From assembly GCA_026982655.1 (NCBI GenBank), contig JALSGO010000165.1, forward strand, positions 35,032 through 99,031: a stretch of DNA of 64,000 nt. Direction: 5' to 3'. The stretch is from Candidatus Bipolaricaulota bacterium (GTDB lineage Bacteria; Bipolaricaulota; Bipolaricaulia; RBG-16-55-9). Every line of letters begins with the position of its first letter. The first letter of the stretch is position 1. The position numbers were made by a program, and so were the translations under genes. The notes beneath the pieces were generated by a model. The model saw only the letters and a list, made by a program, of their open reading frames with translations. It was not told where the DNA came from and made no database searches. Shown here piece by piece: positions 37,524 to 59,727 of the stretch.

Positions 37524-37597
37524 GCGGATGTAGCTCAATGGTAGAGCACCGGCCTTCCAAGCCGGAGACGCGGGTTCGATTCCCGTCATCCGCTCCA
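37524..37597 (+). tRNA. tRNA-Gly(TCC)
   Basis: The hand-folded cloverleaf has anticodon loop CTTCCAA and an encoded CCA. Confidence 0.85.
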
Positions 37598-37626
37598 GTG
37601 ACCGGTGATATGCGCTTAGAAAGCGC

Positions 37627-37702
37627 GCGCCCGTAGCTCAATCGGAAGAGCAGCGGCCTTCTAAGCCGCAGGTTGCAGGTTCGAGCCCTGCCGGGCGTAC
37701 CA
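37627..37702 (+). tRNA. tRNA-Arg(TCT)
   Basis: The anticodon loop is CTTCTAA and the CCA is encoded. Confidence 0.85.
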
Positions 37703-37709
37703 TCCGCGT

Positions 37710-37782
37710 GAGGGACGTAGCTCAAGGGCAGAGCACCGGCCTGTGGAGCCGGGCGTTGCGGGTTCGAGTCCCGTCGTCCCTC
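37710..37782 (+). tRNA. tRNA-His(GTG)
   Basis: The anticodon loop is CTGTGGA. The extra G at position -1 pairing with discriminator C is characteristic of tRNA-His. Confidence 0.85.
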
Positions 37783-37791
37783 CCCGCGCGT

Positions 37792-37867
37792 GCGCCCGTA
37801 GCTCAATCGGAAGAGCAGCGGCCTTCGGAGCCGCGGGTTGGGGGTTCGAGTCCCTCCGGGCGTACCA
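37792..37867 (+). tRNA. tRNA-Arg(TCG)
   Basis: The anticodon loop is CTTCGGA and the CCA is encoded. The body is near-identical to the Arg(TCT) gene apart from the anticodon and T-arm. Confidence 0.8.
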
Positions 37868-37869
37868 GG

Positions 37870-37951
<82 letters not shown>

Positions 37952-37966
37952 CCCCTCGCTTGCCCC

Positions 37967-37994
37967 TTGACAAGGGACGCCTAAAGCGTATAAT
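37967..37994 (+). promoter_or_regulatory. consensus sigma-70 promoter (TTGACA, 16 nt, TATAAT) for tRNA-Gly(GCC)
   Basis: Perfect -35 and -10 hexamers lie about 16 nt upstream of the tRNA 5' end. Confidence 0.6.
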
Positions 37995-38010
37995 CCTTAG
38001 CGGGAGACGA

Positions 38011-38086
38011 GCGGGCGTAGCTCAGTTGGTAGAGCGTTGGCTTGCCATGCCAAAGGTCGCGGGTTCAAGTCCCGTCGCCCGCTCCA
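38011..38086 (+). tRNA. tRNA-Gly(GCC)
   Basis: The anticodon loop is TTGCCAT and the CCA is encoded. Confidence 0.85.
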
Positions 38087-42394: not shown

Positions 42395-43159
42395 GTGGCA
42401 CCTCCTCCCTCCTCCCCCTTGGAGGACCGAGGCCCAACCCCTCCGGGGCGGACGACGTGCTACGGGGAGTGCTCCTGGCTCTTCACGGATTTAGGACGGG
42501 AAGCGCGGGCGCGGCTGGCCCGGATGAGTCGAACGCTGCAGTTCGGACGGCGCGAGGTCATCTTCCACGAAGGCGAGCCCGCGTACGGGCTCTATATCGT
42601 CTGCAAGGGGAAGGTGAAGCTGGCCAAGCACTCGCTCAAGGGGAAGAAGCAGATCCTCAAGCTCCTCGGCCCGGGGGAGATCCTCGGCGAAAAGACGCTC
42701 TTTGACCGGGAGGTCTACACGGCCTACGCCGAGACCCTAGAGGAGACGGAACTCCACTTCATCCAACGGGAGCCTTTTGTGGAGTTCCTCCGGGAACATC
42801 CCGAGGTAGCACTGCGCCTGATCGAAAAGCTCTCTCGCGAGCTTAAGGCGTTCCAGGGCAAGCTGATGGAGGCTTCCTACGAGGGAAGCTTGGAGCGTCT
42901 GGCCCGGCTGCTCCTCCTCATAGGGAACAAATACGGCCGCGAGACGGAGAAGGGGCTGGACATCGGGGTCCGTCTGAGCCGCCAGGAGCTGGCGGAGATG
43001 GCGGGCATCTCCACCGAGACGGCGATCCGGGTTCTATCCCGAATGAAACAGCGCGGCTTGCTGGCCCTTGAGGGATCCAAGATCTACCTCCTCGATCGAG
43101 AGGGGCTTGAGGAGCTTGCGGATCCGCTCCTGGTGCCCCTTAAGGAGAACCTGCTCTGA
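42395..43159 (+). CDS. Crp/Fnr-family transcriptional regulator
   Basis: A cNMP-binding beta-roll is followed by a C-terminal HTH (RQELAEMAGISTETAIRVLSRM). The N-terminus carries a Cys pair (CYGEC). The start at GTG 42395 is uncertain. Confidence 0.7.
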   Translation: MAPPPSSPLEDRGPTPPGRTTCYGECSWLFTDLGREARARLARMSRTLQFGRREVIFHEGEPAYGLYIVCKGKVKLAKHSLKGKKQILKLLGPGEILGEKTLFDREVYTAYAETLEETELHFIQREPFVEFLREHPEVALRLIEKLSRELKAFQGKLMEASYEGSLERLARLLLLIGNKYGRETEKGLDIGVRLSRQELAEMAGISTETAIRVLSRMKQRGLLALEGSKIYLLDREGLEELADPLLVPLKENLL

Positions 43160-44860: not shown

Positions 44861-44903
44861 AAAAGAGCGACCGGAGGCCCGCAGGGCCTCCGGTCGCTCT
44901 TGG
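44861..44903. terminator. bidirectional intrinsic terminator (16-bp perfect stem)
   Basis: AGAGCGACCGGAGGCC-cgca-GGGCCTCCGGTCGCTCT is followed by TTTTC on the minus strand. On the plus strand only TTGGG follows. It sits between convergent genes. Confidence 0.6.
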
Positions 44904-45081: not shown

Positions 45082-46509
45082 TTAGAAGAGGAAGGCCACG
45101 GCGATCCCGGCCAAGCCGGCGAGCAGGGCCACGATGGCCAACCCTTGAGCGGCGTCCGCACGCGCCTGGGCTTCCTTGATCTGGCGTGCGGCGATCTGGG
45201 CCTGCTCCGCGGTGGCTTCCTCGATCTGGAGACGGATCTCCTCGGAGCTGGGAACACGCGGTAGGGCCGCGAGGACCTCTGCGCGGACCTCTTCCTTGAG
45301 GGTCTCGATGGTGGCCAGCCCTTCTTCTAAGCTCTGTTGGAGACCCTGCATGGCCTGTCGGTTGCTCTCCAGCTCGAGGAGGACCTCGGCGAGCTTGGCC
45401 TCCAGTCGCTCGACGCGCTTCTGGAGTTGTGCCACCTGGGGGGACTCCTGCGGTTCGCGCCGGAGTTGCTCTTGGAGCTGCTCCTGCAGTTGATCCAGGG
45501 CGGCACGGAGGGCTTGGATCTGGGAGGCGTTCTCCTCCGATCGCTTGCCCATCTCGGTGATCTGACGTGCGTTTACCTGGATCTGGGAGTTGAGCTGCTG
45601 GAGCTGCTCGGCCAGGCTCTGAATGCGGGGATGGATCTCCCGCATCTGCTGCATGGCGTCTTGGATCTGCGCCGTTCGGGCTTGCAAACCCTCGATACGG
45701 GCGTCGATCTCCGCGATCTTCGCCTGCAGCTGGGCGGTGGTGTTGGCCAGGCTCTCGACCTGGTCGAGTTGGTCCCGCACGGCCCCGATTTGCGCCTCGA
45801 GGTCCTCCAGGCGCGCGGAGAGCGAGCCGATCTGGGAATCGAGCCGGGCCGACAGCCCCTCCAGGCCCGTCTGCAGACCGCGGGTGTTGCTCTCCAGCTG
45901 TGAAGAGAGCCCCTCCAGGCCCGTCTGCAGACCGGCGAGGAAGCCGCGCAGCTGCTCGCGCTCGGACCGGGCCACATCCAGCTGACCAAAGATCGTTCCC
46001 AAGTTCTCCTGGAACGTCTGGACGACGATGAGCGCGTTCTCCACCGACTCTTGGAGCTTGGCGATGCTGAGCTCGTTGGTCTGGATGCGGTTGGAGAGGG
46101 CCTCCACATCGGCGTCGAGGCGCTCGTTCAGCGCCCGGACCGAGCTCTTGAGGGCCTGGACCCTCTCCGGGAGTTCGCGGAGCACGGCGACTTCGTCCGC
46201 CAGCTGCGCGACCGTTCCGGAGAGCTTCTTGATCTCGAAGGTGTTGTCCTTGGCCACCCGCTCGGCGGCGAAGAGTCGAGGACGGAAGTTCTCCAAGTCG
46301 GAGACGACGTCCTCCGACACCCGCTGCACCTGCAGGGTGAGCGACTTGACCAAGGACTCCAAACCGTCTACCGTGGCCTCCAGCTGCGCCAACTGCTCCT
46401 TCAGGGCCGCCGTCTCGTCCGCGTAGGCAGAGCTGATGAGGGTAAAGCCCAAGAGAGTGACAAGCAGCGAGGCCAAAGCCGTCCGCTTGTACGCTTTGCG
46501 TATGCGCAT
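45082..46509 (-). CDS. membrane-anchored long coiled-coil protein with internal repeats
   Basis: An N-terminal signal/TM segment and a C-terminal TM (LAIVALLAGLAGIAVAFLF) flank heptad-rich repeats such as LQTGLEGLSSQLESN. A 26-nt direct DNA repeat lies inside. Confidence 0.65.
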   Translation of the reverse strand: MRIRKAYKRTALASLLVTLLGFTLISSAYADETAALKEQLAQLEATVDGLESLVKSLTLQVQRVSEDVVSDLENFRPRLFAAERVAKDNTFEIKKLSGTVAQLADEVAVLRELPERVQALKSSVRALNERLDADVEALSNRIQTNELSIAKLQESVENALIVVQTFQENLGTIFGQLDVARSEREQLRGFLAGLQTGLEGLSSQLESNTRGLQTGLEGLSARLDSQIGSLSARLEDLEAQIGAVRDQLDQVESLANTTAQLQAKIAEIDARIEGLQARTAQIQDAMQQMREIHPRIQSLAEQLQQLNSQIQVNARQITEMGKRSEENASQIQALRAALDQLQEQLQEQLRREPQESPQVAQLQKRVERLEAKLAEVLLELESNRQAMQGLQQSLEEGLATIETLKEEVRAEVLAALPRVPSSEEIRLQIEEATAEQAQIAARQIKEAQARADAAQGLAIVALLAGLAGIAVAFLF

Positions 46510-46762
46510 GTGTCTTATCCCCCCTTTAGCGTTGTCCTGATTCTAAGCGGCTTTTTAGGGGGTATCAGTAATCGAAGTCACGCTCGCGATCGGACATCGG
46601 AGCCACAGGGAGAGGGGTCCCGCTGTACGGGGGATATTTGGCCTGTGGGGGCCCGGCCCCTAGGGAAAGGGCGGGGAGGTCCTGCGAAAGGCAACTACGG
46701 GCCTCTGAGCAGGACTTCAAGGATGTGCGCTTCTGCAGGGGAATTATGCCCGTTTCGCGGCG

Positions 46763-46795
46763 AGGAGTCCGTTAATATTTCTTAACGGACTCCTC
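46763..46795. repeat. perfect 14-bp inverted repeat overlapping the CoA-transferase stop codon
   Basis: GAGGAGTCCGTTAA-tattt-cTTAACGGACTCCTC. No U-tract follows on either strand. Confidence 0.4.
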
Positions 46796-48004
46796 GACTC
46801 GAAGGACCCCCCGCTCCCGAAGCGCCTCGATCCGGGCATCGTCGTAGCCCAGCTCTTGTAAGATCTCTCGGGTGTGCTCCCCCAAACCCGGCGGATGGCG
46901 ACGCAACCGGGGCGGCGTCCTCTCCAGCTTTAGGGGGGAGCCAAGGATGGAGAGCTCCCCGATCGTCGGGTGCTCCACCGTGCCCATCATCCCCCGGGCC
47001 CGAAGCGGGGGGAGACCCCAGATGGCGGCCAAATCGTTCACCGGCGTGGCCGGGACGTCATGCTCGTTCAAGATCTCGAGCCATTCCTCAAGGGGCTTCC
47101 GGCGGAAGACCTCCACAAGCAGGCGCTCCAGTTCCTCACGGTGCTTCACGCGGGCTGCGTTGTCCACAAAGCGCGGGTCATCCGTCCACTCCGGGTGCCC
47201 CAGCGCCCGACAGAAGCGCTCCCAGATCGCCGGGCTCCCGACAGCGACCACGAGATGCTTCTCGTCTTGAGCCGGGAAGGCTTGATAGGGCACGATCGTC
47301 GGGTGGCGGGAGCCGAGGCGCCGCGGGGGCTCCCCCGTGGCCCAGTAGTACTGGGCCATGTAGGTGAGGGAAGCCACGCCGCAGTCGAGCATGGCCAGGT
47401 CGATCCGCTGTCCGCGGCCCGTGCGCTCCCGCGCCCAGAGGGCCGCCAGCACGGCCTGGACGGCGTAGTGAGCCGTAAAGAGGTCGACGATGGCGACCCC
47501 GATGCGCACCGGCTCTCCCCCCTCCTCGCCCGTGATGCTCATCCAGCCCGATTCCGCTTGTAAGGCAATGTCGTACGCGGGCCGCTCCGCCCAGGGGCTT
47601 TGACGTCCGTAGCCCGTGATCGAGCACCAGATCAGCCTTGGGTTCCTCGGAGTCAAAGCCTCGTAGTCCAGCCCCAGTCGCTCGAGGGCGCCCGGTCGAA
47701 AGTTCTCGATGACGACGTCGCTGCGCTCGGCGAGCTTTCGAAAGATCTCTTGGCCTTCCGGGGCCTTTAGGTTCAAGGCTACGCTGCGCTTGTTGCGGTT
47801 GACGCTCAGATAATACGCGCTTTCGCCCTTCACGAACGGCGGACCCCAAGCCCGGGTCTGATCGCCCCCGTCGGGGTGCTCCAGCTTGATAACATCGGCC
47901 CCCAGGTCGCCGAGCATCATGGCCGCGTATGGCCCCGCCAGCACCCGCGAGGCGTCCAACACCCGCACACCCGCCAGCGGTGGTTCTTGCCGTCGATCAG
48001 CCAT
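46772..48004 (-). CDS. family III CoA-transferase (CaiB/BaiF)
   Basis: The N-terminal motif LAGVRVLDASRVLAGPYAAMMLGDLGADVIKLE is typical, and the full-length interlocked-dimer fold is present. Confidence 0.8.
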   Translation of the reverse strand: MADRRQEPPLAGVRVLDASRVLAGPYAAMMLGDLGADVIKLEHPDGGDQTRAWGPPFVKGESAYYLSVNRNKRSVALNLKAPEGQEIFRKLAERSDVVIENFRPGALERLGLDYEALTPRNPRLIWCSITGYGRQSPWAERPAYDIALQAESGWMSITGEEGGEPVRIGVAIVDLFTAHYAVQAVLAALWARERTGRGQRIDLAMLDCGVASLTYMAQYYWATGEPPRRLGSRHPTIVPYQAFPAQDEKHLVVAVGSPAIWERFCRALGHPEWTDDPRFVDNAARVKHREELERLLVEVFRRKPLEEWLEILNEHDVPATPVNDLAAIWGLPPLRARGMMGTVEHPTIGELSILGSPLKLERTPPRLRRHPPGLGEHTREILQELGYDDARIEALRERGVLRVEESVKKY

Positions 48005-48434
48005 CGGCCGTCGCCTCGCTCTCGCTTTCGGCCTCCAAGAGGACGGCGATCGCTTCCACCTCGACGAGCATGGCCGGGTCGACGAGCGCCCGGACCCCGA
48101 CCATGGTTAGAGCGGGACGGACGTCCCCGAAGGCCTCCGCGTGCGCCCGACCGTACTCCTCCCAGCGCGAGATGTCCGTGACGTACATCCGCGTGCACAC
48201 CACATCTTGGAGGGAGGCCCCGGCCTGCTCCAGCGCCCGTTGCACTTTCTGCAAAGCGTAGCGCGTCTGGGCGTAGGCGTCGTCCCCGCCCACCACGCGG
48301 CCCTGCTCATCCGTAGCCGTCGTCCCCGCCACGAACACCCAAGGCCCTACGCGCACCGCCCGGGAATAACCCACCACGGGCTCCCACGGCGTCCCCGACG
48401 AGATCTTTAGGCGCCTCTCGGTCATCGCGCCCAC
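47997..48434 (-). CDS. RidA/YjgF family enamine/imine deaminase
   Basis: A chorismate-mutase-like trimer fold is present. The start may be at the second ATG. Confidence 0.75.
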   Translation of the reverse strand: MGAMTERRLKISSGTPWEPVVGYSRAVRVGPWVFVAGTTATDEQGRVVGGDDAYAQTRYALQKVQRALEQAGASLQDVVCTRMYVTDISRWEEYGRAHAEAFGDVRPALTMVGVRALVDPAMLVEVEAIAVLLEAESESEATADG

Positions 48435-49891
48435 TCCTCTCGATGCGGATCGTGAAGGCCCACCGGGCGCTTTCGGTACTCGCCCTGGGGCTCCCCCACG
48501 ACGTCCCCCTCCCGCATCACCACGCGGCCCCGCAGCACGGTGTGCGTCGGCCAGCCCCGCAGGCGCATCCCCTCAAAGGGCGTAAAGTCCTGAGAGGAGC
48601 GGAGGACCTCGGGGGTCACGATCTGTTCCCGCTCCAGGTCGACGAGGGTAAGGTCGGCGTCGCTCCCGACGGCGAGCGTCCCCTTACGCGGATAGAGCCC
48701 GAACGCGCGGGCCGGATTGGCGCTCACCAGCTCCGCAATCCGTGTGAGGGAGAGGCCTCTCTGCCGCCCTTCGGAGAGCAGATACGGGTAGAGGAGGGCC
48801 GTCCCGCCGAAGCCGGGGAGCGCTTTCCAGAGGTCTTCTCCCTTCTGTTCCTCGAAGCAGCAGGCGTGGTCGCTGACGATCGTATCGACGTCGCCGCGCA
48901 GGACCGCCTCCCAAAGGGCTTGGCGGTCTTCCTCGGAGCGGATCGGCGGGTTTACCTTGCCCCGCAGCCCGCCCGCGGCCGTCTCGTAGGTGAGCGCCAG
49001 GTGGTGCACCGTCGTCTCCAGGCGGATGTCGAGGTGGGGGTAATCTCGCTTGGCCTCCGCCGCTGCTTCGACGGCCTCGCGGCTGCTTAAGTGGAGCAAA
49101 TTCAAGGGACAACGGGTGACGTCTCCCAAGAGCACGGCTTCGGCCATGGAGAGGCGCTCCGTGAGCGGCGGGCGCGCTCGATGATAGCCCTCCAGAGTGT
49201 GGAGCCCTAGGCGCTTGACCTCGTCGATGAAGACCCGGATGAGCTCCGCGTGCTCGCAGTGGAGGCTGAGCGAGACCCGCCCGTGGTGCCCGTACGCGCG
49301 GGCCGCTTCGGCCACCCGCTGCATGAGCAAGTACAGGTGCCCTAGATCGTAGTGCTCGGCCAGGGTGTAGTCGCTTCCGCGGGTGGAGTCGGCCGTAAGA
49401 TTTAACCCCTTGTAGAACATGTAGTACTTGAAGGAGCCGACGCCCTGCTCGCGGACGAGCCAGTCTACCTCCCCAAGCTGCTCGGACGTCATGATCGCGA
49501 TGTGGTAGCCGTAGTCGGTGTACGCGTGCCCTCGAGTGATGCGCAGCACCTCGGGGAAGATGTCGCGATAGGGACCGCTCTTGTTGAGATAATGATGCCC
49601 CGTGCGGAAGTAGCTGATCACGGTGGTGACCCCGCCCACGAGCGCCGAGGCCGTCTCGCTCAGAGCATCTTCGGCCAATGATCGGTAAATCCCCAGGTGG
49701 AAATGGGAGTCCACAGCTCCGGGGAGGACGACCTTTCCGCGGGCGTCGAGCACCTCTTCGGCTTGGGAGGAGTCGATCCGTTCGTCCAGGGCGACGACCC
49801 TCCCGTTGCGGATCCCGATGTCGCAGCGGAGCGGCCCTACGTACGGGAGAATCACTGTCCCCCCTAACACCGCCAAATCGTAGCGTCTCAC
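48422..49891 (-). CDS. cyclic amidohydrolase (hydantoinase/dihydropyrimidinase/allantoinase superfamily)
   Basis: The HxH metal motif (PGAVDSHFH) and amidohydrolase barrel are present. The start is trimmed to the GTG at 49891, which has a GAGGAGGG SD. The upstream 180 codons are Arg/Gly/Pro junk. Confidence 0.75.
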   Translation of the reverse strand: MRRYDLAVLGGTVILPYVGPLRCDIGIRNGRVVALDERIDSSQAEEVLDARGKVVLPGAVDSHFHLGIYRSLAEDALSETASALVGGVTTVISYFRTGHHYLNKSGPYRDIFPEVLRITRGHAYTDYGYHIAIMTSEQLGEVDWLVREQGVGSFKYYMFYKGLNLTADSTRGSDYTLAEHYDLGHLYLLMQRVAEAARAYGHHGRVSLSLHCEHAELIRVFIDEVKRLGLHTLEGYHRARPPLTERLSMAEAVLLGDVTRCPLNLLHLSSREAVEAAAEAKRDYPHLDIRLETTVHHLALTYETAAGGLRGKVNPPIRSEEDRQALWEAVLRGDVDTIVSDHACCFEEQKGEDLWKALPGFGGTALLYPYLLSEGRQRGLSLTRIAELVSANPARAFGLYPRKGTLAVGSDADLTLVDLEREQIVTPEVLRSSQDFTPFEGMRLRGWPTHTVLRGRVVMREGDVVGEPQGEYRKRPVGLHDPHREEWAR

Positions 49892-49926
49892 GCTGAGTTT
49901 CCCTCCTCGTTTGGATCTTACGTGCG

Positions 49927-50451
49927 TTACGTCCGCAGGCGTTCCCCGCGGCGCAGCAGCTCCAAGAGCCCTCCGGCCTTCATGAGCTGCCGGACGAAGG
50001 GCGGGAGCGGCTCGGCCTGCAACTCTTCCCCCGTCGTGAGGTTGCGAACGCGGCCGATGAGGGGCTCGACCTCCAGCTCGTCGCCGTCCCGGACGGCCTT
50101 TGTGATCCCGGTACAGACCAGCACGGGATAGCCCAGGTTGATCGCGTTGCGGAAGAAGAGCCGCGAGAAGGACTCCGCCAAGACGCAGGCCACGCCCAGC
50201 TCCTTGAGCACCCGCGCGGCCGGACGGCTTGATCCGCATCCGAAATTTACGCCCGCGACGACCAGGTCTCCCGGCTTCACGTGCTCGGCGAACTCCGGTC
50301 GGATCGCTCGGAAGACGAAGCGCTTGATCTCCTCCTCGGGGACCTTCCCGTACATCGTCTCGCTCGGCAGGATGAGGTCCGTGTTGATGTGGTCCCCGAA
50401 GACCCACGCCCGCCCGCGATACCGCCACGCCGTCTCGCTCTCCTCGCTCAT
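49927..50451 (-). CDS. aconitase-family dehydratase small subunit (LeuD-like)
   Basis: It matches the LeuD swivel domain (...GDNIDTD-like HINTDLI). Confidence 0.8.
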   Translation of the reverse strand: MSEESETAWRYRGRAWVFGDHINTDLILPSETMYGKVPEEEIKRFVFRAIRPEFAEHVKPGDLVVAGVNFGCGSSRPAARVLKELGVACVLAESFSRLFFRNAINLGYPVLVCTGITKAVRDGDELEVEPLIGRVRNLTTGEELQAEPLPPFVRQLMKAGGLLELLRRGERLRT

Positions 50452-50485
50452 CGAGTCCCCTCCTCTCCCCCTATTTTCGTTGGCG

Positions 50486-51763
50486 TCACAGAAGGTACTT
50501 CCTCGGGTCGGCGATGTACCCTTCCAGGGCCGAGGCGGCCACGGTGGCCGCTGAGGCCAAATAGATCTGGGCCTTGGGGCTCCCCATTCGCCCTCGGTAG
50601 TTGCGGTTCTGCGAGGCGATGCAGACCTCGCCGTCCCCCAACAACCCTAAGTGGAACCCCGGACAGGCCCCGCAGTCGGCGTGGGTGATCACGGCCCCCG
50701 CCTCCGCCAGCACCTGCAAAATCCCCTGCTTGAGGGCTTCTTCGTACACGGATTGCGAGGCGGGAGTTACCAACAACCGCGTGTCGGGATGGATCCGTCG
50801 TCCCCTCAGGATGCGGGCCGCCACCTCCAGGTCTTCCAAGCGGGCGTTCGTGCACGACCCCAAGAAGGCCTGGTCGATCTTCACGTTCTCGGTCTCCAGG
50901 GCGCTTACGGGCTGTACGTTGCCCACGTCGTGAGGACAGGCGACCATCGGTTCCAGCCGGGAGACGTCCATCTCGATCACCCGCTCATAGTGGGCGTCGG
51001 GGTCGGGCCCTATGGGCTCCAAGGTCTCCCGCTCCCCCTCGGGAACCCGGGCGCGTACGTACTCCAGCACGACCTCGTCCGGCGGCTGGAGGGCGAACTT
51101 CGCCCCCAACTCAACGCCCATATTGGAGAGCACGATGCGGCTCTCCAAGCTCATCTCGCGAAGGGCCGGACCGTCCCACTCCAGGGACTTATAGAGCGCG
51201 ACGTCCTCCCCATACGTCCCCGCGATATACAGGACGACGTCCTTGGAGGAGACTCCCGGAGGGAGTTCTCCCTCCAGGAGGATTCGGAGAGATTCCGGGA
51301 CGCGGAACCACGTCTCCCCGTAGGCGAGTACGTAGGGGGTCTCCACGTTGATCCCGCAGGCGGCAGCCCCCAGCGCCCCGGCGGTGCAGGTGTGCGAGTC
51401 CGCGCCGACGACGAGCTCGCCAGGCCGGGCAAACCCCTCCTCCAAAAAGACCTGGTGGCAGATGCCGCGGCCCACCTCGTAGACGTAGCGCAGGCCCAGC
51501 TCTTTGACGAGCTTTCGGGCCTCAGCGAAGGCGTTGGCCGCGCTCACCGTGGGGGGTGGGGCCACGTGGTCGAAGACGACCACCACCCGCTCCGGGTCCC
51601 AAACGCGCCCTCCGGCCTGCTGGGCGAACGTTGCGAACCGCCAGCCCGTCATCAGCAGGCGATCCACCCGGGCGATCACCAAGTCGCCGGGGCGCACCCG
51701 CTCCCGGCCCGAGGCCCGTGCCAGGATCTTCTCGGCCATCGTCATGCCTGGGTGCGTGCTCAT
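50486..51763 (-). CDS. aconitase-family dehydratase large subunit (LeuC-like)
   Basis: The Fe-S ligand region (CTNARLEDL / ADCGACPG) is present, with LeuC/HacA-type similarity throughout. Confidence 0.8.
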   Translation of the reverse strand: MSTHPGMTMAEKILARASGRERVRPGDLVIARVDRLLMTGWRFATFAQQAGGRVWDPERVVVVFDHVAPPPTVSAANAFAEARKLVKELGLRYVYEVGRGICHQVFLEEGFARPGELVVGADSHTCTAGALGAAACGINVETPYVLAYGETWFRVPESLRILLEGELPPGVSSKDVVLYIAGTYGEDVALYKSLEWDGPALREMSLESRIVLSNMGVELGAKFALQPPDEVVLEYVRARVPEGERETLEPIGPDPDAHYERVIEMDVSRLEPMVACPHDVGNVQPVSALETENVKIDQAFLGSCTNARLEDLEVAARILRGRRIHPDTRLLVTPASQSVYEEALKQGILQVLAEAGAVITHADCGACPGFHLGLLGDGEVCIASQNRNYRGRMGSPKAQIYLASAATVAASALEGYIADPRKYLL

Positions 51764-52722
51764 TGGCCCCTCCTCGCTCCCTCTCTCTCGGGGGAGTCTT
51801 CATCTCGTCCGACTTGCATCTGTTGCCGAGCCTGCCGACGGAAGCCCTCCTCCCGCTCTTGCAGCTCGGGAAGCTCCGTGATCTCATCGCGGTCGTGGAA
51901 CGTAATCAGCTCTTCCAGGAGGTCCAGGGAGGTGCCCCGCTCCAGGAGGTGGCGGTAGACGCGGGCCATCGTCTTGGCCGCGGCCCGCAGCGCCGTGTTC
52001 GCATGCACCACCACCCGATAGCCGAAGCGCTCGAATTCCCTCAGCGGGAGGAACGGCGTCTTGCCGCCCTCCGGGAGGTTGACGAGAAGGGGCGCAGGGA
52101 TCTCTCGGGGGATACGGGCCAGCTCCTCCCAACTGCGTGGGGCTTCGATGAACACGAGATCCGCTCCCGCTTCCGCAAAGGCCCGTCCGCGCCGCAGGGC
52201 TTCCTCCAGGCCGTGGGTGGCCCGCGCGTCCGTACGGGCGATGATCAGGACGTTCTCGTCCTCGCGGGCGTCGAGAGCCGCATAGAGCTTGGCCAGCATC
52301 TCCTCCAAGGGGATGACGCGCTTCCCCTCGAAGTGGCCGCAGCGTTTGGGGAAGACCTGGTCCTCCAGCTGGATCGCAGACGCTCCGGCCCGCTCGAACG
52401 CTCGCACGGTCCGCACGACGTTCAGGGGACCGCCGTAGCCGGTGTCCGCGTCGGCTATGACGGGCACCTGGACCACATCGACGATTTGGGCCAAGCGCTC
52501 CCGCATCTCGTTGAACGCTAGGAGCCCGATGTCCGGTACCCCCATGCTGGAGGCGACCCCGGAGCCCGAGAGGTAGACGGCCTCGGCCCCGGCCCGCTCG
52601 GCTAAGCGGGCGCTCAGCCCGTCGTAGACGCCCGGCACGAGCAGAATCTTCCCGTCTTGCACGCGCGCCCGCAACCGGGCGTTCCGCTCCCGTTGTCGAA
52701 GGGGATGGATCATCTCGCTCAC
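51760..52722 (-). CDS. isocitrate-lyase/PEP-mutase family C-C lyase (methylisocitrate-lyase-like)
   Basis: PrpB-like motifs (GVYDGLSARL, IADADTGYG, KRCGH) and a C-terminal acidic tail are present. Confidence 0.75.
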   Translation of the reverse strand: MSEMIHPLRQRERNARLRARVQDGKILLVPGVYDGLSARLAERAGAEAVYLSGSGVASSMGVPDIGLLAFNEMRERLAQIVDVVQVPVIADADTGYGGPLNVVRTVRAFERAGASAIQLEDQVFPKRCGHFEGKRVIPLEEMLAKLYAALDAREDENVLIIARTDARATHGLEEALRRGRAFAEAGADLVFIEAPRSWEELARIPREIPAPLLVNLPEGGKTPFLPLREFERFGYRVVVHANTALRAAAKTMARVYRHLLERGTSLDLLEELITFHDRDEITELPELQEREEGFRRQARQQMQVGRDEDSPEREGARRGQ

Positions 52723-53432
52723 CCTCCTACGTAGGCGCGCTTGACCCGCTCGTCCTCTCGAAGGGTCTCGATCGGCCCTTCGAGGACGATCCGTCCGTTC
52801 TCCAGTACGTATCCCCGCTCGGCGACGGCAAACGCCACGTGGACGTTCTGCTCCACGAGTAGAACGCTTATCCCCTGCCGGTGGAGCTGCCCGATGGCCT
52901 CGGTGACCTCGTCCACGAGATAGGGAGCCAAGCCCATGGTCGGCTCGTCGAAGAGGAGCAGCTTGGGCCGGGACATGAGCGCTCGTCCGATGGCGAGCAT
53001 CTGCTGTTCGCCGCCGCTTAGGTTCCCCGCCCGCTGGTGCCGCCGCTCCCGCAATCGAGGGAAGAGCGCGTAGACCCGCTCGATGTCCGCTGCGATCTCC
53101 GGATCGTCTCGTGTGAAGGCTCCCATCTCGAGGTTCTCGAGCACCGTCATCTCGGGGAAGAGCTGCCGCCCCTCGGGGCAGTGGGCGATCCCCAAGCGCA
53201 CGATGGCCGCCGGGGAGAGGCGCGCAAGGTCCCCTCCCCCAAACCGGATGCGACCCGAGCGCGGGCGCAGCAGCCCCGAGATTGCCCGTAGCGTCGTCGT
53301 CTTGCCCGCGCCGTTGGCCCCCAACAGCGCGATCAGCTCCCCCGGCCCGACGCGCAGGGAGATCCCCTGCAGCGCGGGAACCCGACCGTAGCAGACCGAA
53401 ACGTCCTCGAGCAGGAGCTCACATCCGCTCAT
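52719..53432 (-). CDS. livF: branched-chain-type ABC transporter ATPase
   Basis: Walker A (GANGAGKTT), signature (LSGGEQQ) and Walker B motifs are present. Confidence 0.85.
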   Translation of the reverse strand: MSGCELLLEDVSVCYGRVPALQGISLRVGPGELIALLGANGAGKTTTLRAISGLLRPRSGRIRFGGGDLARLSPAAIVRLGIAHCPEGRQLFPEMTVLENLEMGAFTRDDPEIAADIERVYALFPRLRERRHQRAGNLSGGEQQMLAIGRALMSRPKLLLFDEPTMGLAPYLVDEVTEAIGQLHRQGISVLLVEQNVHVAFAVAERGYVLENGRIVLEGPIETLREDERVKRAYVGG

Positions 53433-55317
53433 GGGTGGACTCCCTCCGTCCTTCCGCCTCTCGCTCCCGCCGTCGCTGCCGGGAGCGGCCCAAGTAGACC
53501 TCGATGACCCGGGGATCGTCCTTCACCTCGTCGGGTCGGCCCTCGACGAGCTTCTCGCCGTGGTGGAGCACCACCAAGCGATCGCAGTGGCGAACTAGGG
53601 TTTCCATATGGTGATCCACCAGGAGCACGGTGATTCCCAGCTCCCGAAGGCGGTGGAGGAGCGTCATGCACCGCTCGGCCTCCGCCGGACTCATGCCCGC
53701 GAAGGGCTCATCCAGCAGGAGCAGCTTCGGTTTCGCCCCTAGAGCGATCGCGATCTCCAGCACGCGCTGCTCTCCGTAGGGCAGGTCGGCCGCAGCCTTG
53801 TGACGGGAGCCCTGAAGCCCGGATAGACACAGGATGGCCTCTGTGCGCCCCTCGACATTCGCAGGGTGCAGATGGCATCCGATCCGCACGTTCTGTTCGA
53901 CGGTGAGCCGGGGGAACACTTTGGTGTTCTGGAAGGTGCGCACGATTCCCAAGCGGGCGCGCTCGTGGGGTGCCCGGCGGGTGATCTCCTGCCCCTGGAA
54001 GAGGACCCGGCCTGATGTAGGCCGCAAGAACCCTGTAATGATGTTGAAGAGGGTCGTCTTGCCCGCGCCGTTCGGGCCCACAAGGCCGACGATCTCCCCC
54101 GGGCGAACGTCGAAGCTAACCTCCGCCACGGCCCGGAAGCCCCCAAAGTCCTTTACGACTTGCTCCACCCGCAACAGGGCCGTCCCCTTCTCCGCCGGTG
54201 GATCCTGCGAGGAAGAGGACAAAAGAGCGTTCAGGTTGGGATCGGAACGGGAGGGGGTTAGCTCCGGTGTCGCTTCCCCCGGAGGAGCGTTCGGGACACC
54301 TGCCGGGCTCCTCTCGGGAGTGAGGAGCCCGGAGGCGACGGCGGGAGCAAGGCGGGTTCGCAAACGCCGGAGTCCCCCCACAAGGCCCTGCGGCAGGAAG
54401 GCGATCGTTAGGATGAGGAGCACGCCGAAAAGGATTTCCGAAAAGGCGGGGTGCACCTGCCGGGTCAGCTCGTTGAGGAGAGTGAGGAACGCGGGCCCTA
54501 AAATCGGCCCTAAGGTGGAACCCGCGCCTCCCACCAAGTTCATCACGAAGAGGTCAAACGACTCGCGAAAGGTGAAGCTCTCCGGGCTGATAAACGTCAC
54601 ATAGTGGGCGAACAACGAGCCCGTCATCCCCGCGATCCCCGCGCTCAGGGCGAACACCGCGACCTTGTAGCGATGGGTGGGGATTCCCACAGCTTGCGCA
54701 AGGTCCTCGTCCTCGCGGATGGCGATAAGGGCTTCTCCGAAGCGGGAGCGCACGAGCCGCTCCTTGGTCCACAGCACGAGGAGGGCGAGCGCCAGGACCA
54801 GATAGTAATACCCCAGCTTGTCGCGGAAGGGGTTGAACGTGTAGGCAAGCACCCCCGGGATCTCCACCGAGGCGAAGGGAATGCCGGGGATCCCGTGGGG
54901 ACCGCGGGTAAGGCCGCTCAGCACGTTCATCAAGATGGTGATCACGATCCCCGCGATGAAGGTGACGACCACGAAGTAGTGGCCGCGCAGCCGGAGGGCC
55001 GGGTACCCCAGCGCGAGGCCACACGCCCACGCGACCCCGCCCGCCAAGAGCAGCGCTCCTAGGAACGGAAAACCGGCTTTGACGAGCAGCGCGGAGGTAT
55101 AGGCCCCGATCCCCCAGAATCCCGCGTGCGCGAGAGAAAGCAGCCCCGTATACCCGATGAGAAGGTCCAAGCTGGCCACCAAGGCGACGTTCATGGCGAT
55201 GAGCACCAGCAAGTGGCGCTCCAGGGTCGTGGGGAAGATGTGGGGAAGGGCGAGCGCTCCTAAGAGACTCGCTCCTATGAGCACGATGCGCAGGCCCTTT
55301 GCGCTCCAGCGCCTCAC
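53419..55317 (-). CDS. fused ABC permease-ATPase (LivM-LivG)
   Basis: An N-terminal LivM-type permease with about 8 TM helices is followed by a Pro/Ser-rich linker of about 70 aa and a LivG-type ATPase (GPNGAGKTT, YGEQR). The start is trimmed to the GTG at 55317 (GTGA overlap with livH, GGAGGGGG SD). Confidence 0.75.
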   Translation of the reverse strand: MRRWSAKGLRIVLIGASLLGALALPHIFPTTLERHLLVLIAMNVALVASLDLLIGYTGLLSLAHAGFWGIGAYTSALLVKAGFPFLGALLLAGGVAWACGLALGYPALRLRGHYFVVVTFIAGIVITILMNVLSGLTRGPHGIPGIPFASVEIPGVLAYTFNPFRDKLGYYYLVLALALLVLWTKERLVRSRFGEALIAIREDEDLAQAVGIPTHRYKVAVFALSAGIAGMTGSLFAHYVTFISPESFTFRESFDLFVMNLVGGAGSTLGPILGPAFLTLLNELTRQVHPAFSEILFGVLLILTIAFLPQGLVGGLRRLRTRLAPAVASGLLTPERSPAGVPNAPPGEATPELTPSRSDPNLNALLSSSSQDPPAEKGTALLRVEQVVKDFGGFRAVAEVSFDVRPGEIVGLVGPNGAGKTTLFNIITGFLRPTSGRVLFQGQEITRRAPHERARLGIVRTFQNTKVFPRLTVEQNVRIGCHLHPANVEGRTEAILCLSGLQGSRHKAAADLPYGEQRVLEIAIALGAKPKLLLLDEPFAGMSPAEAERCMTLLHRLRELGITVLLVDHHMETLVRHCDRLVVLHHGEKLVEGRPDEVKDDPRVIEVYLGRSRQRRREREAEGRRESTHERM

Positions 55318-56192
55318 GCGGTTCGCCCCCCTCCGCCGAAGAGCCCCTGCGGGCGCACCAGCAGAATTGCGATCATGAGTCCGAAGGCAACGAGGTCGCT
55401 GTACTGGGCCGCGGTGAAGGCAGCCACCAGCGTCTCCGTAAGGCCGATGATGAGCGCGCCTACAAGGGCCCCCTTGATGCTGCCCATGCCGCCGAAGATC
55501 ACGATGGCGAACGACTTCAGGATGATGATCCCTCCGATGGTCGGGTTGAACGCCCGCGTCGGGGAGACCAGCGCGCCCGCGATCCCCGCAAGGGCTGCCG
55601 CCAAGGTGAAGGTGAGGAGGGCGACCTTGTGCATCTCCACCCCGACCAGCGCGGCGGCGTCGCGGTTTTGAGACATGGCCCGCAGGGCCTTCCCCATCTT
55701 CGTACGCTGAAGGAAGAGCCACACAGCCCCCAAGAGCAGCCCGGTCATCCCGATCGTAAAGACTTGATGGTAGGTGAGGACCGCACCCCCGAGGGCGAGC
55801 TTGGCGTGACCGAACGGCGAGGGGAGCAGCCGAAAATCGGCTCCGAACCTGAAGATCGCCGCATTCTCCAGGATGAGCAAGATCCCCAAGGCCGCGATGA
55901 ACGTCGTCGCCCCGCCTACCCGATGGAGCGGCCGGTAGACCAACAGATAGTTGAGCACCCCGATCGCGGCCATGCCCAGTCCTGCCAGTCCCAGGGAGAG
56001 GAAATAGGGCAATCCTAGAAGCTGAGAGGCGTAGAACGCAACGTAGGCTCCCAGCATGTAGAGGGCTCCCTGGGCAAAGTCGGCAATGTCCATCACCCCG
56101 AAGATCAGGGTGAGTCCCAGGGCTACGAGGGCGTAGACGCTGCTGTTGAACAGCCCCAGCAGTACGGCTTGCACGAGGATGTCAAGGTCCAT
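55314..56192 (-). CDS. livH: branched-chain-type ABC transporter permease
   Basis: A LivH-like permease with 8 TM helices is present. The start is trimmed to the ATG at 56192. Confidence 0.8.
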   Translation of the reverse strand: MDLDILVQAVLLGLFNSSVYALVALGLTLIFGVMDIADFAQGALYMLGAYVAFYASQLLGLPYFLSLGLAGLGMAAIGVLNYLLVYRPLHRVGGATTFIAALGILLILENAAIFRFGADFRLLPSPFGHAKLALGGAVLTYHQVFTIGMTGLLLGAVWLFLQRTKMGKALRAMSQNRDAAALVGVEMHKVALLTFTLAAALAGIAGALVSPTRAFNPTIGGIIILKSFAIVIFGGMGSIKGALVGALIIGLTETLVAAFTAAQYSDLVAFGLMIAILLVRPQGLFGGGGRTA

Positions 56193-56338
56193 GATCTCAA
56201 CCGTCCACTGTACTCCCGACGGCTCTTTTGCCCAACCCGGCTCTTGACAGATGTATGATGTCTGTGATACGATCACAAGCATAAACGATGACCGCCTCCC
56301 CCGCAAGAGGCAACTCAAGGAAAAAGGAGGTCTTCGGT

Positions 56339-57625
56339 ATGGCATCCAAGGAGAGGGGATCCTCCCAGGGAGGGATGAGTCGCCGGGGGTTCCTCAAGCT
56401 CGCAGGCGTCGGGCTGGTCGGGGTAAGCCTGGGGACGGGATGGAGCCGCACGGGATGGTCCCAACTGCCGGATACGATTCGTATCGGGGCGATGTTTCCG
56501 CTCAACCTTGCCGAGGGGGCCCAGGCCCAAGAGGGGGCGGAGCTGGCCGTCCGGCTCATCAACGAGGCCGGTGGCATAGCCGGGCAGACACAGATCGAGC
56601 TGGTGACCGTGGACGACAAGTGCAGCGGCTCGGAGGCCACCAAGGTGGCCAACGACCTCATTTCGCAGGGCGTGCAGTTCGTGATCGGGAACTTCTGCAG
56701 CGGGGCGGCGCTGGCCACGCAGCCGATCCTCGCCGCCGCCGGCATCCCCCAGATCCTCTGGGCGTTCGCCACGGACCTTACCGGAGCGTCCCGGGAGGAA
56801 AACAACGCCATCCTCTCCGTGCGGTTGGGCCCGCAGGCCAAGATCGAGATGGCCCCTCTGGCCAAGTACGCTGTCGTCGCAAACGGCCACAAGCGCTTCT
56901 TCGCCTTCGCGCAGGACACGGGCTTCGGCCGCTCTATGGTCGAGGCGTTCCGCCAGACGTTGGAGGGCTTGGGCGGCGAGTTCGTCGAGGAGCCGCAGTT
57001 CTTTCCCATCTTCCAGCTGGGGGCCATCGGGCCGCTGATCACCGCGGCCAAGGCCTCGGGCGCCGAGGCCGTCCTCGGCATCGGGCTTGCCCCCGAGGAG
57101 ATCGAGATGGTGACCCAATTCAACACCCAGGGGCTGCGCGAGGCAGGCATGACGTTCTACGGGACGGACTTGCTGAACGACACCGCCTTCCAAGAGGCCG
57201 TCCCCGACTCGGAGAAGGACGGGATCTACTTCCCCTGGGTCTACGACAACGGGGACTCCCCTCGGACCTTCGATCGAGCGGAGCCGGAGCCCGGCGCGCG
57301 GAGGATGGACGAGGCCTTCCGCACGCACTTCGGAAGGCCCGCCGTGCGCAACAACGGCTGGGGCTGGGGGAGCATCGAGCTGATCCGTCAGTCCATCGAG
57401 CAACTCGGGAGCGCGGTCCCCACAGCCGTCGCGGAATACTGGCTCCAAGGGGCAACCGAGGCGACCACGGGACCCACCTTTGAACTTCCCTTCGGGAACT
57501 ACGGATTCCTGATCTGTGGGCAGGCCAACATGCGCACCGGGGTAGGGACGTATCGTGAGGGGGTGCGCACCCTGGTAGCCGATCGAGACTTCGGGAACGA
57601 CGTGGTGATCGACCTGTGTTCCTAG
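56339..57625 (+). CDS. livK: ABC transporter periplasmic substrate-binding protein (Leu/Ile/Val-binding family) with Tat-like signal
   Basis: A perfect AAAAAGGAGG SD and an SRRGFLKLAGVG twin-arginine signal are present, with a type I periplasmic-binding-protein fold. Confidence 0.8.
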   Translation: MASKERGSSQGGMSRRGFLKLAGVGLVGVSLGTGWSRTGWSQLPDTIRIGAMFPLNLAEGAQAQEGAELAVRLINEAGGIAGQTQIELVTVDDKCSGSEATKVANDLISQGVQFVIGNFCSGAALATQPILAAAGIPQILWAFATDLTGASREENNAILSVRLGPQAKIEMAPLAKYAVVANGHKRFFAFAQDTGFGRSMVEAFRQTLEGLGGEFVEEPQFFPIFQLGAIGPLITAAKASGAEAVLGIGLAPEEIEMVTQFNTQGLREAGMTFYGTDLLNDTAFQEAVPDSEKDGIYFPWVYDNGDSPRTFDRAEPEPGARRMDEAFRTHFGRPAVRNNGWGWGSIELIRQSIEQLGSAVPTAVAEYWLQGATEATTGPTFELPFGNYGFLICGQANMRTGVGTYREGVRTLVADRDFGNDVVIDLCS

Positions 57626-57725
57626 CCCTGTCAAGGAGCGGGATTTCCTCTCTTTGCCCATCCCTTGATCGCCCGTTGAGAGGCGGATAGACGCACCTGG
57701 ACAGGGAGGCCTAGGGCCTACGGGG

Positions 57726-57769
57726 AACAAGAGGGGAGAAGTCTCCTTCTCCCCTCTTGTTCTTTGCTT
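57726..57769 (+). terminator. intrinsic terminator after livK
   Basis: AACAAGAGGGGAGAAG-tct-CCTTCTCCCCTCTTGTT is followed by CTTTGCTT. Confidence 0.65.
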
Positions 57770-57812
57770 CCTCCGGCCGGGTGGACGGAGCCCTCTTCCC
57801 TCGGCTTCCGAC

Positions 57813-57844
57813 ATTTTGTCGGTCTTTCGAAGATCTGTGATAAT
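57813..57844 (+). promoter_or_regulatory. putative promoter for the GntR gene with extended -10 (TTGTCG, 17 nt, TGTGATAAT)
   Basis: The hexamers lie about 30 nt upstream of the ATG at 57876. Confidence 0.35.
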
Positions 57845-57875
57845 AGTCTTACCAGAGCGAGGAGAGACGATCGGC

Positions 57876-58619: not shown

Positions 58620-58620
58620 A

Positions 58621-59520
58621 TTAGATCTCGATCCGGTCCTCCACCGGGTTCTCGAGCCGCCCGTGCTCGTGGAAGTAGATCATCGTCGTCTGGATGGAGC
58701 GGTGCCGCGCCGCCGTCTGCGCTTCTAAGAGGGAGGCTCCGCCCTCGATGGCCAGCGTGACGAAGCTGTGCCGGAGGGAGTGGGGCGAGGTCCGGTCCGT
58801 CTTGACCCCGGCCCGCTTCATGTAGTGCGTCACCCGTCTGCGGATGTGGCGGGTGCTCAGACGCCCCTCTTCCGTGTGGGTGCCCACTTTGGTGAACAGG
58901 GGTGCCTCCGGCGGTACCTCCCCCCGACGGCTCAGGTACTCCAGCAGGGCGCGCTCGGTGGGCTCGGCCAGCACCACGAACTCGTCACGCTCATCTCGTC
59001 CCTTGCCCCAGATGTGCAGGATCTTGCGGCCCTGACGGGTGTCCAGGTCTCCCACGTTCGCCCGGTGGATCTCGATAATCCGCAGTCCGTTGCGCACCAT
59101 CAGGGTGATCATCGCATAATCCCGCAACCCCAGCTCCGTGCTCCGGTCGATCACCTCGAAGAGCCGGCGCAGCTCCGTGCGGGTGAGATCCCGCTTCAGG
59201 TGCCCCCGGGGTCGGCGCAGGCCCTTGATCCCCTCCACGGGGTTGCGCTCCGCCAGCCCCTCGGCCACGGCGAACTGGAAGAAGCGTCGGAGCGCGACCC
59301 AGTAGGTGAGCACGGTGTTGGCTGCCCGATGCGTCCGCAGCCACTCGCGGTAGGCCTTGAGCGTCTCCGGGGTGAGCGGGGGCGGCGGGGAGCCCTGCTC
59401 CCGCCACCAGCGGGTGAAGGTCTTGAGCGCCTCCCGGTACGTGCGGGCCGTGCTGGGGGAGACGTCGATCTGCTGCAGGAACCTCTCACAGGCCTCCGGC
59501 CACGACACCCACGACACCAT
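58621..59520 (-). CDS. tyrosine site-specific recombinase (XerC/XerD-like integrase)
   Basis: The catalytic R...HxxR...Y region is present (LRHSFVTLAIEGG...IQTTMIYFH). The start is trimmed to the ATG at 59520, which has a GGGGGAGGAGAGG SD. Confidence 0.8.
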   Translation of the reverse strand: MVSWVSWPEACERFLQQIDVSPSTARTYREALKTFTRWWREQGSPPPPLTPETLKAYREWLRTHRAANTVLTYWVALRRFFQFAVAEGLAERNPVEGIKGLRRPRGHLKRDLTRTELRRLFEVIDRSTELGLRDYAMITLMVRNGLRIIEIHRANVGDLDTRQGRKILHIWGKGRDERDEFVVLAEPTERALLEYLSRRGEVPPEAPLFTKVGTHTEEGRLSTRHIRRRVTHYMKRAGVKTDRTSPHSLRHSFVTLAIEGGASLLEAQTAARHRSIQTTMIYFHEHGRLENPVEDRIEI

Positions 59521-59727
59521 GGACGGGTCGCCTCTCCTCCCCCAGTCCTTTTGAGGAAGGATTGTACGAGAAACGAGGGATCTCGGCAAGCCGAGCAGGA
59601 AGGGGTGAACCCACGGGATGCCGGGGTGTGACCAACTTCACGCCTCCCGTTGACAGACCTCCTCCCCCCCGCGACGGGATGCCCGTTACAGTGAGGCACA
59701 GTCTATGCCCAAGGAGGAGGCAGATCT

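Follow-up and report, generated by a model that had tools for sequence, protein, structure and literature searches.

The 64,000-nucleotide (nt) stretch of DNA analysed here, hereafter the window (positions 35,032 to 99,031 of contig JALSGO010000165.1 from a Candidatus Bipolaricaulota bacterium), encodes two paralogous proteins of 475 and 312 amino acids (aa), named CC475 and CC312, each of which is made up of a signal peptide, a long coiled coil and a C-terminal hydrophobic helix. The two proteins may be envelope spacer or tether rods that resemble Omp-alpha of Thermotoga without possessing its S-layer homology (SLH) domain. This reading is made by analogy and is put forward at a probability of roughly 45%.

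CC475 starts with MRIRKAYKR, an n-region with four basic residues; a hydrophobic core of 16 residues comes next, and cleavage is predicted at SSAYA↓DE. Among 19 aligned homologues S27, A28 and A30 never vary and D31 and E32 hardly do, as expected of a site for type I signal peptidase. Neither CC475 nor CC312 contains a cysteine and both therefore lack a lipobox, so that neither is a lipoprotein. Across residues 31–450 of CC475 the hydrophobic periodicity peaks at 3.50 with a power of 8.0, where shuffled sequences have a 95th percentile of 1.45. The resulting heptad coiled coil is about 420 residues long, and some three-quarters of the rod can be assigned to a confident heptad register with V, I or L in position a and mostly L in position d. 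Invariant columns are concentrated in aa 31–175, the presumed functional tip, which carries LESLVKSLTLQVQRVS, FRPRLF, KDNTFEIKKLSGTVA and an invariant LP; this part keeps the heptad register, and the Pfam and NCBIfam searches identified no domain in it, SLH included. The last 23 residues (GLAIVALLAGLAGIAVAFLF) form the only hydrophobic segment besides the signal peptide, and the protein ends in it. This C-terminal helix bears a face of small residues, ARADAAQGLAIVALLAG is conserved in it, and a hidden Markov model (HMM) of the helix, the anchor HMM, matches extreme C-termini only. In the CC475 family the C-terminal module reads PRVPSxEEIRLQ followed by KEAQARADAAQGLAIVALLAG. Family conservation sits at both ends of the protein and the middle differs in length. 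An earlier note on this DNA had described a 475-aa open reading frame (ORF) with a signal peptide, a long coiled coil and a C-terminal membrane helix, and both the ORF and this architecture are borne out.

CC312 has the same layout and lies divergently from a tyrosine recombinase gene, with an intergenic gap of 138 nt. The two proteins match each other in BLASTP (E 3e-8), the profiles of their families align collinearly from signal peptide to anchor (hhalign 98.9%, E 2.4e-17), and their common motif K(D/E)xxFE(I/L)KKL has left a 31-nt, 84% identical remnant in the DNA, on opposite strands at 46222–46252 and 59928–59958. Judged from these matches, CC312 is a true paralogue of CC475, in agreement with what the earlier note had said of its architecture and position. 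AlphaFold2 (AF2) monomer models, which show only that both proteins are predicted to be all-helical, place breaks in CC475 at residues 75, 222–230, 351–357 and 415–422 and a hinge in CC312 at 174–184. A Foldseek search of the PDB with these models returned nothing at E ≤ 0.001.

The family to which these proteins belong is small. CC475-type orthologues number 18 (371–466 aa) and CC312-type orthologues 29 (217–312 aa). Every member that carries the name of a source organism comes from Candidatus Bipolaricaulota, Acetothermia or Fraserbacteria, including six contig loci of related genomes and three cluster members; most members carry no such name. An exhaustive profile search across 1.84 billion representatives was swamped by generic or giant coiled coils, which ran into the thousands, and became useful only after filtering by layout and with the anchor HMM. 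Among its best 150 matches, 36 of the 144 new proteins have both an N- and a C-terminal hydrophobic segment, and about 25 of these 36 are 238–477 aa long and match the profile from end to end. By sequence, CC475 and CC312 thus belong to an uncharacterised family that has so far been organism-named only within the Bipolaricaulota group.

Searches of Pfam and NCBIfam with both whole proteins and with their N- and C-terminal fragments gave generic coiled-coil matches only (SMC, Rad50, EzrA and similar), far under the cut-offs. The Pfam matches considered are the best 25 of 75 families for one whole protein and the best 25 of 43 for the other, both at E ≤ 1, and the best 25 of 93 at E ≤ 10 for the N-terminal fragment. 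PF00395 (SLH) is not among them. Every match in this set is stronger than any outside it, so a real SLH domain would have shown, and the same library does detect SLH in P0051 (37.9 bits) and P0213 (36.8 bits), two proteins considered below. Among the same best Pfam matches and those listed from NCBIfam there is likewise no MCP/MCPsignal or HAMP model for either protein. Identity as a methyl-accepting chemotaxis protein was also rejected because the rod follows a signal peptide and is hence extracytoplasmic, and the chemoreceptor-like function entertained by the earlier note is not supported. The NCBIfam model LA_3659, a spirochaete coiled coil, scores 47.7 bits against a cut-off of 36 in the variable rod of CC475 (aa 205–352), but is non-diagnostic since unrelated giant coiled coils pass it too. 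At the other end of the proteins, no sorting-domain model matches the C-terminal 62–70 aa at E ≤ 10 and no basic tail follows the hydrophobic helix. A sortase, exosortase, archaeosortase or rhombosortase signal was rejected, as the layout of defining motif, transmembrane segment and basic tail is not seen. Braun lipoprotein (Lpp) was rejected as well, given the lack of cysteine and a score of 16.5 bits for the Lpp model against a cut-off of 108.

Another explanation considered is a cytoplasmic, SMC-like chromosome-segregation protein that is functionally linked to the Xer recombinase and the dif-like site described below. Names given by JGI to family members include 'chromosome segregation ATPase', and the CC475 gene does lie near both elements. 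However, the SMC and Rad50 models reach 30–54 bits against cut-offs of 567–1087 and match the coil only, ATPase head domains are missing among the domain matches, and the conserved cleavable signal peptide and the terminal transmembrane helix point to export. Domain content refutes this explanation, whose chances are put close to nil, and the JGI name is a coiled-coil artefact.

Length differs among members of both families. Relative to the window CC475, insertions and deletions (indels) in the well-ordered rod amount to 7, 11, 18 and 29 residues; these are sums of heptads and hendecads, so that the coiled-coil register is preserved. In a proline-containing stretch at residues ~344–362 the indels are irregular. 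The window CC475 is the longest of its family (range 371–475 aa), with two private 7-residue insertions, and the window CC312 is also the longest of its own. The lengths of CC475 and CC312 covary with r = 0.98 across eight paired genomes, a value that is uncorrected for shared ancestry and only suggestive. Length polymorphism is therefore present and homology to a characterised family was not found, the two points on which the earlier note had let its proposal depend.

The closest counterpart in layout is Omp-alpha (OmpA1) of Thermotoga, in which a signal peptide and an SLH domain are joined to a coiled coil of 316 aa and some 20 hydrophobic residues at the C-terminus (PMC3387000). The C-terminus has been proposed as the toga anchor, two Omp-alpha paralogues are carried by Thermotogales genomes, and the rod is reported to be ~50 nm long (PMC3387000), which is of the same order as the ~62 nm and ~39 nm that the CC475 and CC312 rods would span at full extension. 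The family shares with Omp-alpha the signal peptide, a coiled coil of at least 300 residues that is more than 75% helical, the ~20 hydrophobic C-terminal residues and the presence of two paralogues per genome. The host is comparable too: Bipolaricaulota and Fraserbacteria have been reported as sister phyla of the Thermotogae with an Omp-alpha/Omp-beta-type tether, and a toga-like sheath has been reported in one enriched and one cultured member of the Bipolaricaulota. In contrast to Omp-alpha, the conserved N-terminal part of CC475 is itself a coiled coil, and likeness in sequence goes no further than a marginal match at the anchor. By analogy, the family appears to work like Omp-alpha, but it is not a member of the Omp-alpha family.

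For localisation, for the membrane that holds the anchor, for oligomeric state and for the spacer function itself, the following is what we infer. CC475 and CC312 would be exported through Sec as alpha-helical coiled-coil rods. At least 20 hydrophobic residues after an exported chain normally stop transfer in the cytoplasmic membrane, and by this default Sec logic the single C-terminal helix would be a stop-transfer anchor in that membrane. The conserved N-terminal 145 residues would then form a distal tip that touches another layer of the envelope, either the cell wall or the toga, and rod length evolves by register-keeping insertions and deletions. With strong conserved promoters and ribosome-binding sites (RBSs), the rods would be abundant and structural. 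Envelope spacing had been among the roles suggested by the earlier note and stands as a plausible one. A more far-reaching version, in which the pair would represent an unrecognised class of SLH-less tethers, with inner-membrane rods whose tips dock to the wall or toga, whose length sets the width of the periplasm and whose expression, and with it toga attachment, is tuned by a Crp/FNR regulator, is considered rather improbable.

Several observations weigh against the spacer reading. CC475 and CC312 lack the SLH domain of Omp-alpha, no peptidoglycan-binding domain is found among their Pfam and NCBIfam matches, and they resemble SLH-bearing proteins only weakly. For Bipolaricaulota and Fraserbacteria a canonical tether of the SLH type, Omp-alpha/Omp-beta beside CsaB, has already been reported, so the tether role is perhaps filled. 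Neither a beta-barrel (Omp-beta) gene nor a CsaB gene lies near CC475 or CC312, the neighbours being ProDH, a DOMON-domain protein, Crp, CoA-transferase, Xer and SecA. The mismatch between 62 and 39 nm is awkward if both rods are to bridge one gap. Finally, the AF2 monomers have low confidence (pLDDT 62 and 54 for the two paralogues) and cannot separate a straight from a folded-back rod.

The rods might also be oriented as in Omp-alpha, with the C-terminal helix residing in the toga or outer membrane and the conserved N-terminal part binding the wall or an inner layer without SLH. The matching layout speaks for this orientation, given where the Omp-alpha C-terminus is proposed to sit, as does the weak similarity of the anchor to that of P0213, a protein with SLH, coiled coil and transmembrane segment that matches the anchor HMM marginally (i-E 0.005). 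Both window proteins furthermore end in phenylalanine (AFLF and FGVF), but the terminal residue is not conserved in either family. The lack of SLH or any other wall-binding domain, the absence of an encoded outer-membrane beta-barrel partner nearby and the stop-transfer behaviour expected of such a helix all count against it, and the Omp-alpha orientation is regarded as unlikely.

Other envelope proteins with coiled-coil stalks resemble the pair less closely. OmpM/SlpA of diderm Terrabacteria has a long periplasmic coiled-coil stalk, but CC475 and CC312 are without its SLH domain and C-terminal beta-barrel and end, according to the all-helical models, in a single hydrophobic helix. P0051, a protein of this type (SLH, coiled coil and beta-barrel), ranks first among the non-family matches of the indexed search (E 7e-17); homology was rejected since the profile match covers 63 rod columns at 72% probability, which is a resemblance of the rod only. 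Proteins of the 'SH3 and anchor' family TIGR04211 (E. coli YgiM type) are likewise exported, contain a coiled coil and are anchored in a membrane at the C-terminus; however, CC475 and CC312 have no SH3 and score 32 bits against a cut-off of 65, through the coil only. The archaeal SlaB/tetrabrachion system also has a coiled-coil stalk with a signal peptide at one end and a transmembrane anchor at the C-terminus. CC475 and CC312 differ from it in having a bacterial host, in lacking beta-sandwich or arm domains and in scoring 25 bits against 700 with the SlaB model.

It is in the manner of SlaB and tetrabrachion that CC475 and CC312 could instead serve as stalks, holding a surface or S-layer structure, or a recruited partner, at a fixed distance from the membrane. 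The weak SlaB coiled-coil matches fit this idea, and an S-layer on the toga has been reported for the cultured strain J31. In four proteins of ~800 aa encoded outside the window (P0112, P0113, P0158 and P0218), the CC475-type C-terminal module is joined to a signal peptide, a VWA domain at the N-terminus and a long coiled coil. They share KEEIxxEVLAxxPxxP plus the terminal helix, and one is labelled as a Salinibacter metagenome-assembled genome. The anchor module hence occurs with other heads, which amounts to a stalk-plus-head design; it also supports the polarity assumed in the spacer reading, with the anchor at the base and the head at the tip. CC475 and CC312 themselves, however, have no globular head, no S-layer gene is found nearby, and the SlaB score is far below its cut-off. 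A stalk function is therefore held to be doubtful, and the spacer or tether rod is retained as the working interpretation.

Regulatory sequences upstream of both genes are conserved. Within the 75 nt before the CC475 start, three blocks are invariant in six loci: GTGAC-N4-(G/A)TTAC, the –10 box TAGAAT (46540–46545) and the leader CGCTAAAGGGGGGAT. In the window the first of these forms the imperfect Crp/FNR-type palindrome GTGACTTCGATTAC (46568–46581), the centre of which lies 29 nt before the –10 box, at about –41.5 as counted from the sequence. Class II activator sites for CRP and FNR occupy this position. Upstream of CC312, TGTGACCAA(C/G)TTC(A/C)C, a –10-like TA(C/G)AGT and the RBS AAGGAGGAGGCA are conserved in four loci, and the Xer/CC312 intergenic region of the window holds the near-consensus Crp-type palindrome TGTGACCAACTTCAC. 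Relatives carry an additional TGTAACGCGGGTTAC of the GTA-N8-TAC type upstream of CC312. Each palindrome pattern occurs once in the 64 kb; as the patterns were derived from these very sites, it is their conservation that provides real evidence. A Crp/FNR-family regulator is encoded close to CC475, is 73–78% identical in L004–L007 (numbers of this kind denote loci of related genomes) and is syntenic with CC475 there. With palindromes upstream of both genes and a syntenic regulator, co-regulation of CC475 and CC312 is plausible, the regulator being a candidate to act on both promoters.

Conditional expression of this kind would also suit a regulated protein of the cytoplasmic membrane involved in membrane stress, signalling or organisation, for which the coiled coil would be an interaction scaffold, and the metabolic neighbours ProDH and the DOMON-domain protein could be read in the same way. 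Sensor, HAMP, MCP and kinase domains are, however, missing from the domain matches, the proteins have no cytoplasmic part through which a signal could be relayed, and the strength and invariance of the RBS are in keeping with a structural protein made in abundance. Such a role is accordingly judged improbable, slightly more so than a stalk. Between the convergent ProDH and CC475 genes lies a perfect terminator-like hairpin with 18-nt arms, by which CC475 appears to be monocistronic.

The 26-nt direct repeat to which the earlier note had drawn attention is real. It is the central part of two 42-nt segments with 86% identity (45839–45880 and 45893–45934), which are spaced by 54 nt (18 aa) and encode two 18-residue units (GLQTGLEGLSSQLESNTR and GLQTGLEGLSARLDSQIG). 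The repeat consists of two copies and not of a tandem array, and Tandem Repeats Finder makes no call. The local periodicity of the region is 3.58, near 18/5, which recalls the Omp-alpha periodicity value that Engel et al. are said to have given in 1992. In the window the copies share their codons, including the rare GGT. Given the same peptide and the codon usage of the window this has p ~6e-4, so that the DNA identity of the repeat exceeds chance; in a relative of 81% identity the copies differ at synonymous sites. The identical codons suggest a small gene conversion in the window lineage and not programmed variation. All six sequences of 55–100% identity have exactly two of the 18-residue units, whereas a second branch of the family has one and a third has none. 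The duplication is thus old and stable. A metagenome scan for strain-level variants of the repeat yielded four loci only, each with two copies, and when the locus is compared between two assemblies, 2 of 13,428 bases differ.

On this basis, the proposal that the adjacent tyrosine recombinase varies the surface protein in length or repeat number, as the earlier note had it, can be weighed. Its point about length variation holds in part, in that the family ranges from 371 to 475 aa through indels, while the number of repeats is fixed at two in the six sequences. The recombinase does adjoin CC312, and the synonymous identity of the copies in the window lineage, as opposed to the 81% relative, is suggestive of local gene conversion. 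However, tyrosine recombinases act at specific sites and not on 18-codon repeats, the two assemblies of the locus are essentially identical, and no inverted repeats are conserved in relatives around the CC475 or CC312 promoters, the Xer/CC312 spacer having none at all. An invertible promoter of the fim type was considered and rejected: a lone 16-nt, 81% inverted repeat flanks the CC475 promoter, and its distal arm is unconserved even in the 81% relative. DNA-invertase models reach 24–26 bits against cut-offs of ~220. The recombinase scores best with the models XerC (139.6 bits), XerD (135.4 bits) and XerA (127.6 bits), all under their equivalog cut-offs.

The recombinase is, moreover, a conserved and syntenic gene. 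The two paralogues occur together in relatives, whose genes are arranged as CC312 (reverse), Xer, CC475, ProDH, DOMON-domain protein and Crp/FNR regulator. Xer lies between the paralogues in three of four related genomes (L003, L004 and L007), where it is 72–76% identical to that of the window and CC475 only 35–53%. In L005/L012 Xer is absent and CC312 and CC475 are directly divergent neighbours, 850 nt apart. The window keeps the order of its relatives, but ~12 kb of metabolic genes separate CC475 from Xer. Upstream of CC475 lies a candidate dif site, a palindrome of 9+6+9 that can be extended to 11+6+11. It is unique in the window even at three mismatches, and none of 100 shuffles matched it. 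In seven other genomes (eight in total) its core is invariant between unrelated flanks and lies 240–330 nt upstream of the CC475 orthologue (among the positions are L002 4151, L004 7756, L006 2219, L007 7669, L014 2526 and L015 1978); in one relative the spacer is 7 bp long. The palindrome is found 4 nt past the Xer stop codon in L014, 376 nt in L004 and 2.5 kb in L007.

A dif site as published has a pair of 11-bp half-sites around a centre of 6 bp, and in single-recombinase systems the xer gene adjoins its site, as xerS does difSL (PMC5357621). The window holds both parts of such a Xer/dif module, a catalytic domain (PF00589) and a linked palindrome with a centre of ~6 bp. It resembles XerS/difSL and XerH/difH in the genetic linkage of Xer to a palindrome with a 6-bp AT-rich centre, but differs from XerS/difSL in that the palindrome and the xer gene are 12 kb apart. 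Because the gene is conserved, syntenic and accompanied by a dif-like site of published layout, the recombinase looks like a chromosome-dimer resolvase with its candidate dif site and not like an agent acting on the rod genes. Recombinase-driven variation is consequently taken to be largely refuted and very improbable.

The palindrome shows some further features. It is AT-rich although the genome has 65% GC, and its left arm and centre encode the last codons of the CoA-transferase ORF (..VEESVKKY-stop, 46772–46795), by which the C-terminus of this enzyme is fixed by a non-coding element. The gap between palindrome and Xer is 4 nt to 2.5 kb in relatives versus ~12 kb in the window, where positions 46800–58620 encode a CoA-transferase, RidA, an amidohydrolase, aconitase subunits, a PEP-mutase/ICL-like protein, a branched-chain ABC transporter and GntR. 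The flank of the palindrome is constant on the CC475 side and variable on the Xer side, the pattern expected of repeated DNA insertion on one side of dif. An IMEX-type island spanning the 12 kb from dif-like site to Xer is not supported, as the window contains no second dif copy at up to three mismatches and no remnant by the Xer stop codon. In L007 part of the gap is filled by a 206-aa ORF (5187–5807) that overlaps the Xer stop codon and may resemble Uma2/DUF820-type putative endonucleases. GC skew was rejected as a terminus marker, since its sign change at 46–47 kb follows the gene strand and a 64-kb window is too short. Coordinates of the features are collected in Table 1.

Table 1. Features of the CC475 and CC312 loci in window coordinates
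Feature	Position	Strand	Basis or remark
CC475 gene	45082..46509	–	ORF; 18 strong homologues, 371–466 aa; start, RBS and promoter kept in 6 loci
CC475 signal peptide (predicted), aa 1–30	46420..46509	–	Basic n-region, hydrophobic core, A-x-A site
CC475 most conserved rod part, aa 31–175; presumed functional tip	45985..46419	–	Invariant columns concentrated here
CC475 two 18-residue units, aa 193–228	45826..45933	–	Contain the 26-nt exact DNA repeat
CC475 C-terminal hydrophobic helix, aa 453–475	45085..45153	–	Hydropathy; small-residue-rich, no cytoplasmic tail
CC475 5' leader and RBS CGCTAAAGGGGGGATA	46516..46531	–	Identical in 6/6 aligned loci
CC475 conserved promoter	46540..46581	–	Invariant blocks in 6 loci; promoter scan
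Terminator-like hairpin	44863..44901	.	Perfect 18-nt arms; between convergent ProDH and CC475
Candidate dif site GTCCGTTAA-GAAATA-TTAACGGAC	46767..46790	.	9+6+9 palindrome; overlaps CoA-transferase ORF stop codon
Crp/FNR-family regulator	42395..43159	+	cNMP_binding and HTH_Crp_2
Xer-type tyrosine recombinase	58621..59589	–	PF00589, 90.8 bits; N-terminal SAM-like domains
Crp-type palindrome TGTGACCAACTTCAC	59627..59641	+	Near-consensus; Xer/CC312 intergenic; unique in window
CC312 gene, 312 aa	59728..60666	+	Same layout as CC475
CC312 signal peptide, aa 1–25			
CC312 Pro/Gly hinge, aa 174–184			Joins two coiled-coil segments
CC312 C-terminal helix, aa 289–312			

Scans for tRNA genes and with Rfam gave nothing near the CC475 locus. 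Elsewhere in the window, six clustered tRNA genes (Gly, Arg, His, Arg, Leu and Gly) occupy 37524–38086, with two genes for tRNA-Pro at 34.7 and 36.7 kb. The SecA gene (60795–63623, reverse strand) adjoins CC312. Ahead of the C-terminal zinc-binding CPCGSGKKYKHCC motif, its product carries an unusual (GV)n/Ala-rich insertion of low complexity (APVGAGVGVGVGVGATSSGLGG..AAVAAATAAKPKP).

What keeps the outer layer of deep-branching diderms at a constant distance is a question of current interest, with relevance for outer-membrane tethering, for toga biogenesis and for transitions from diderm to monoderm cells. If CC475 and CC312 are not spacers, they represent one more lineage-specific coiled-coil family of unknown role. 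The coiled-coil tethers known from Terrabacteria are so far all SLH-based, and a pair of SLH-less rods would constitute a second design if the two proteins are indeed envelope spacers. In that case, the heptad and hendecad steps in length and the covarying paralogues would furthermore offer a natural series in which rod length can be compared with periplasm width. As a cultured Bipolaricaulota strain has now been reported, the spacer idea is testable.

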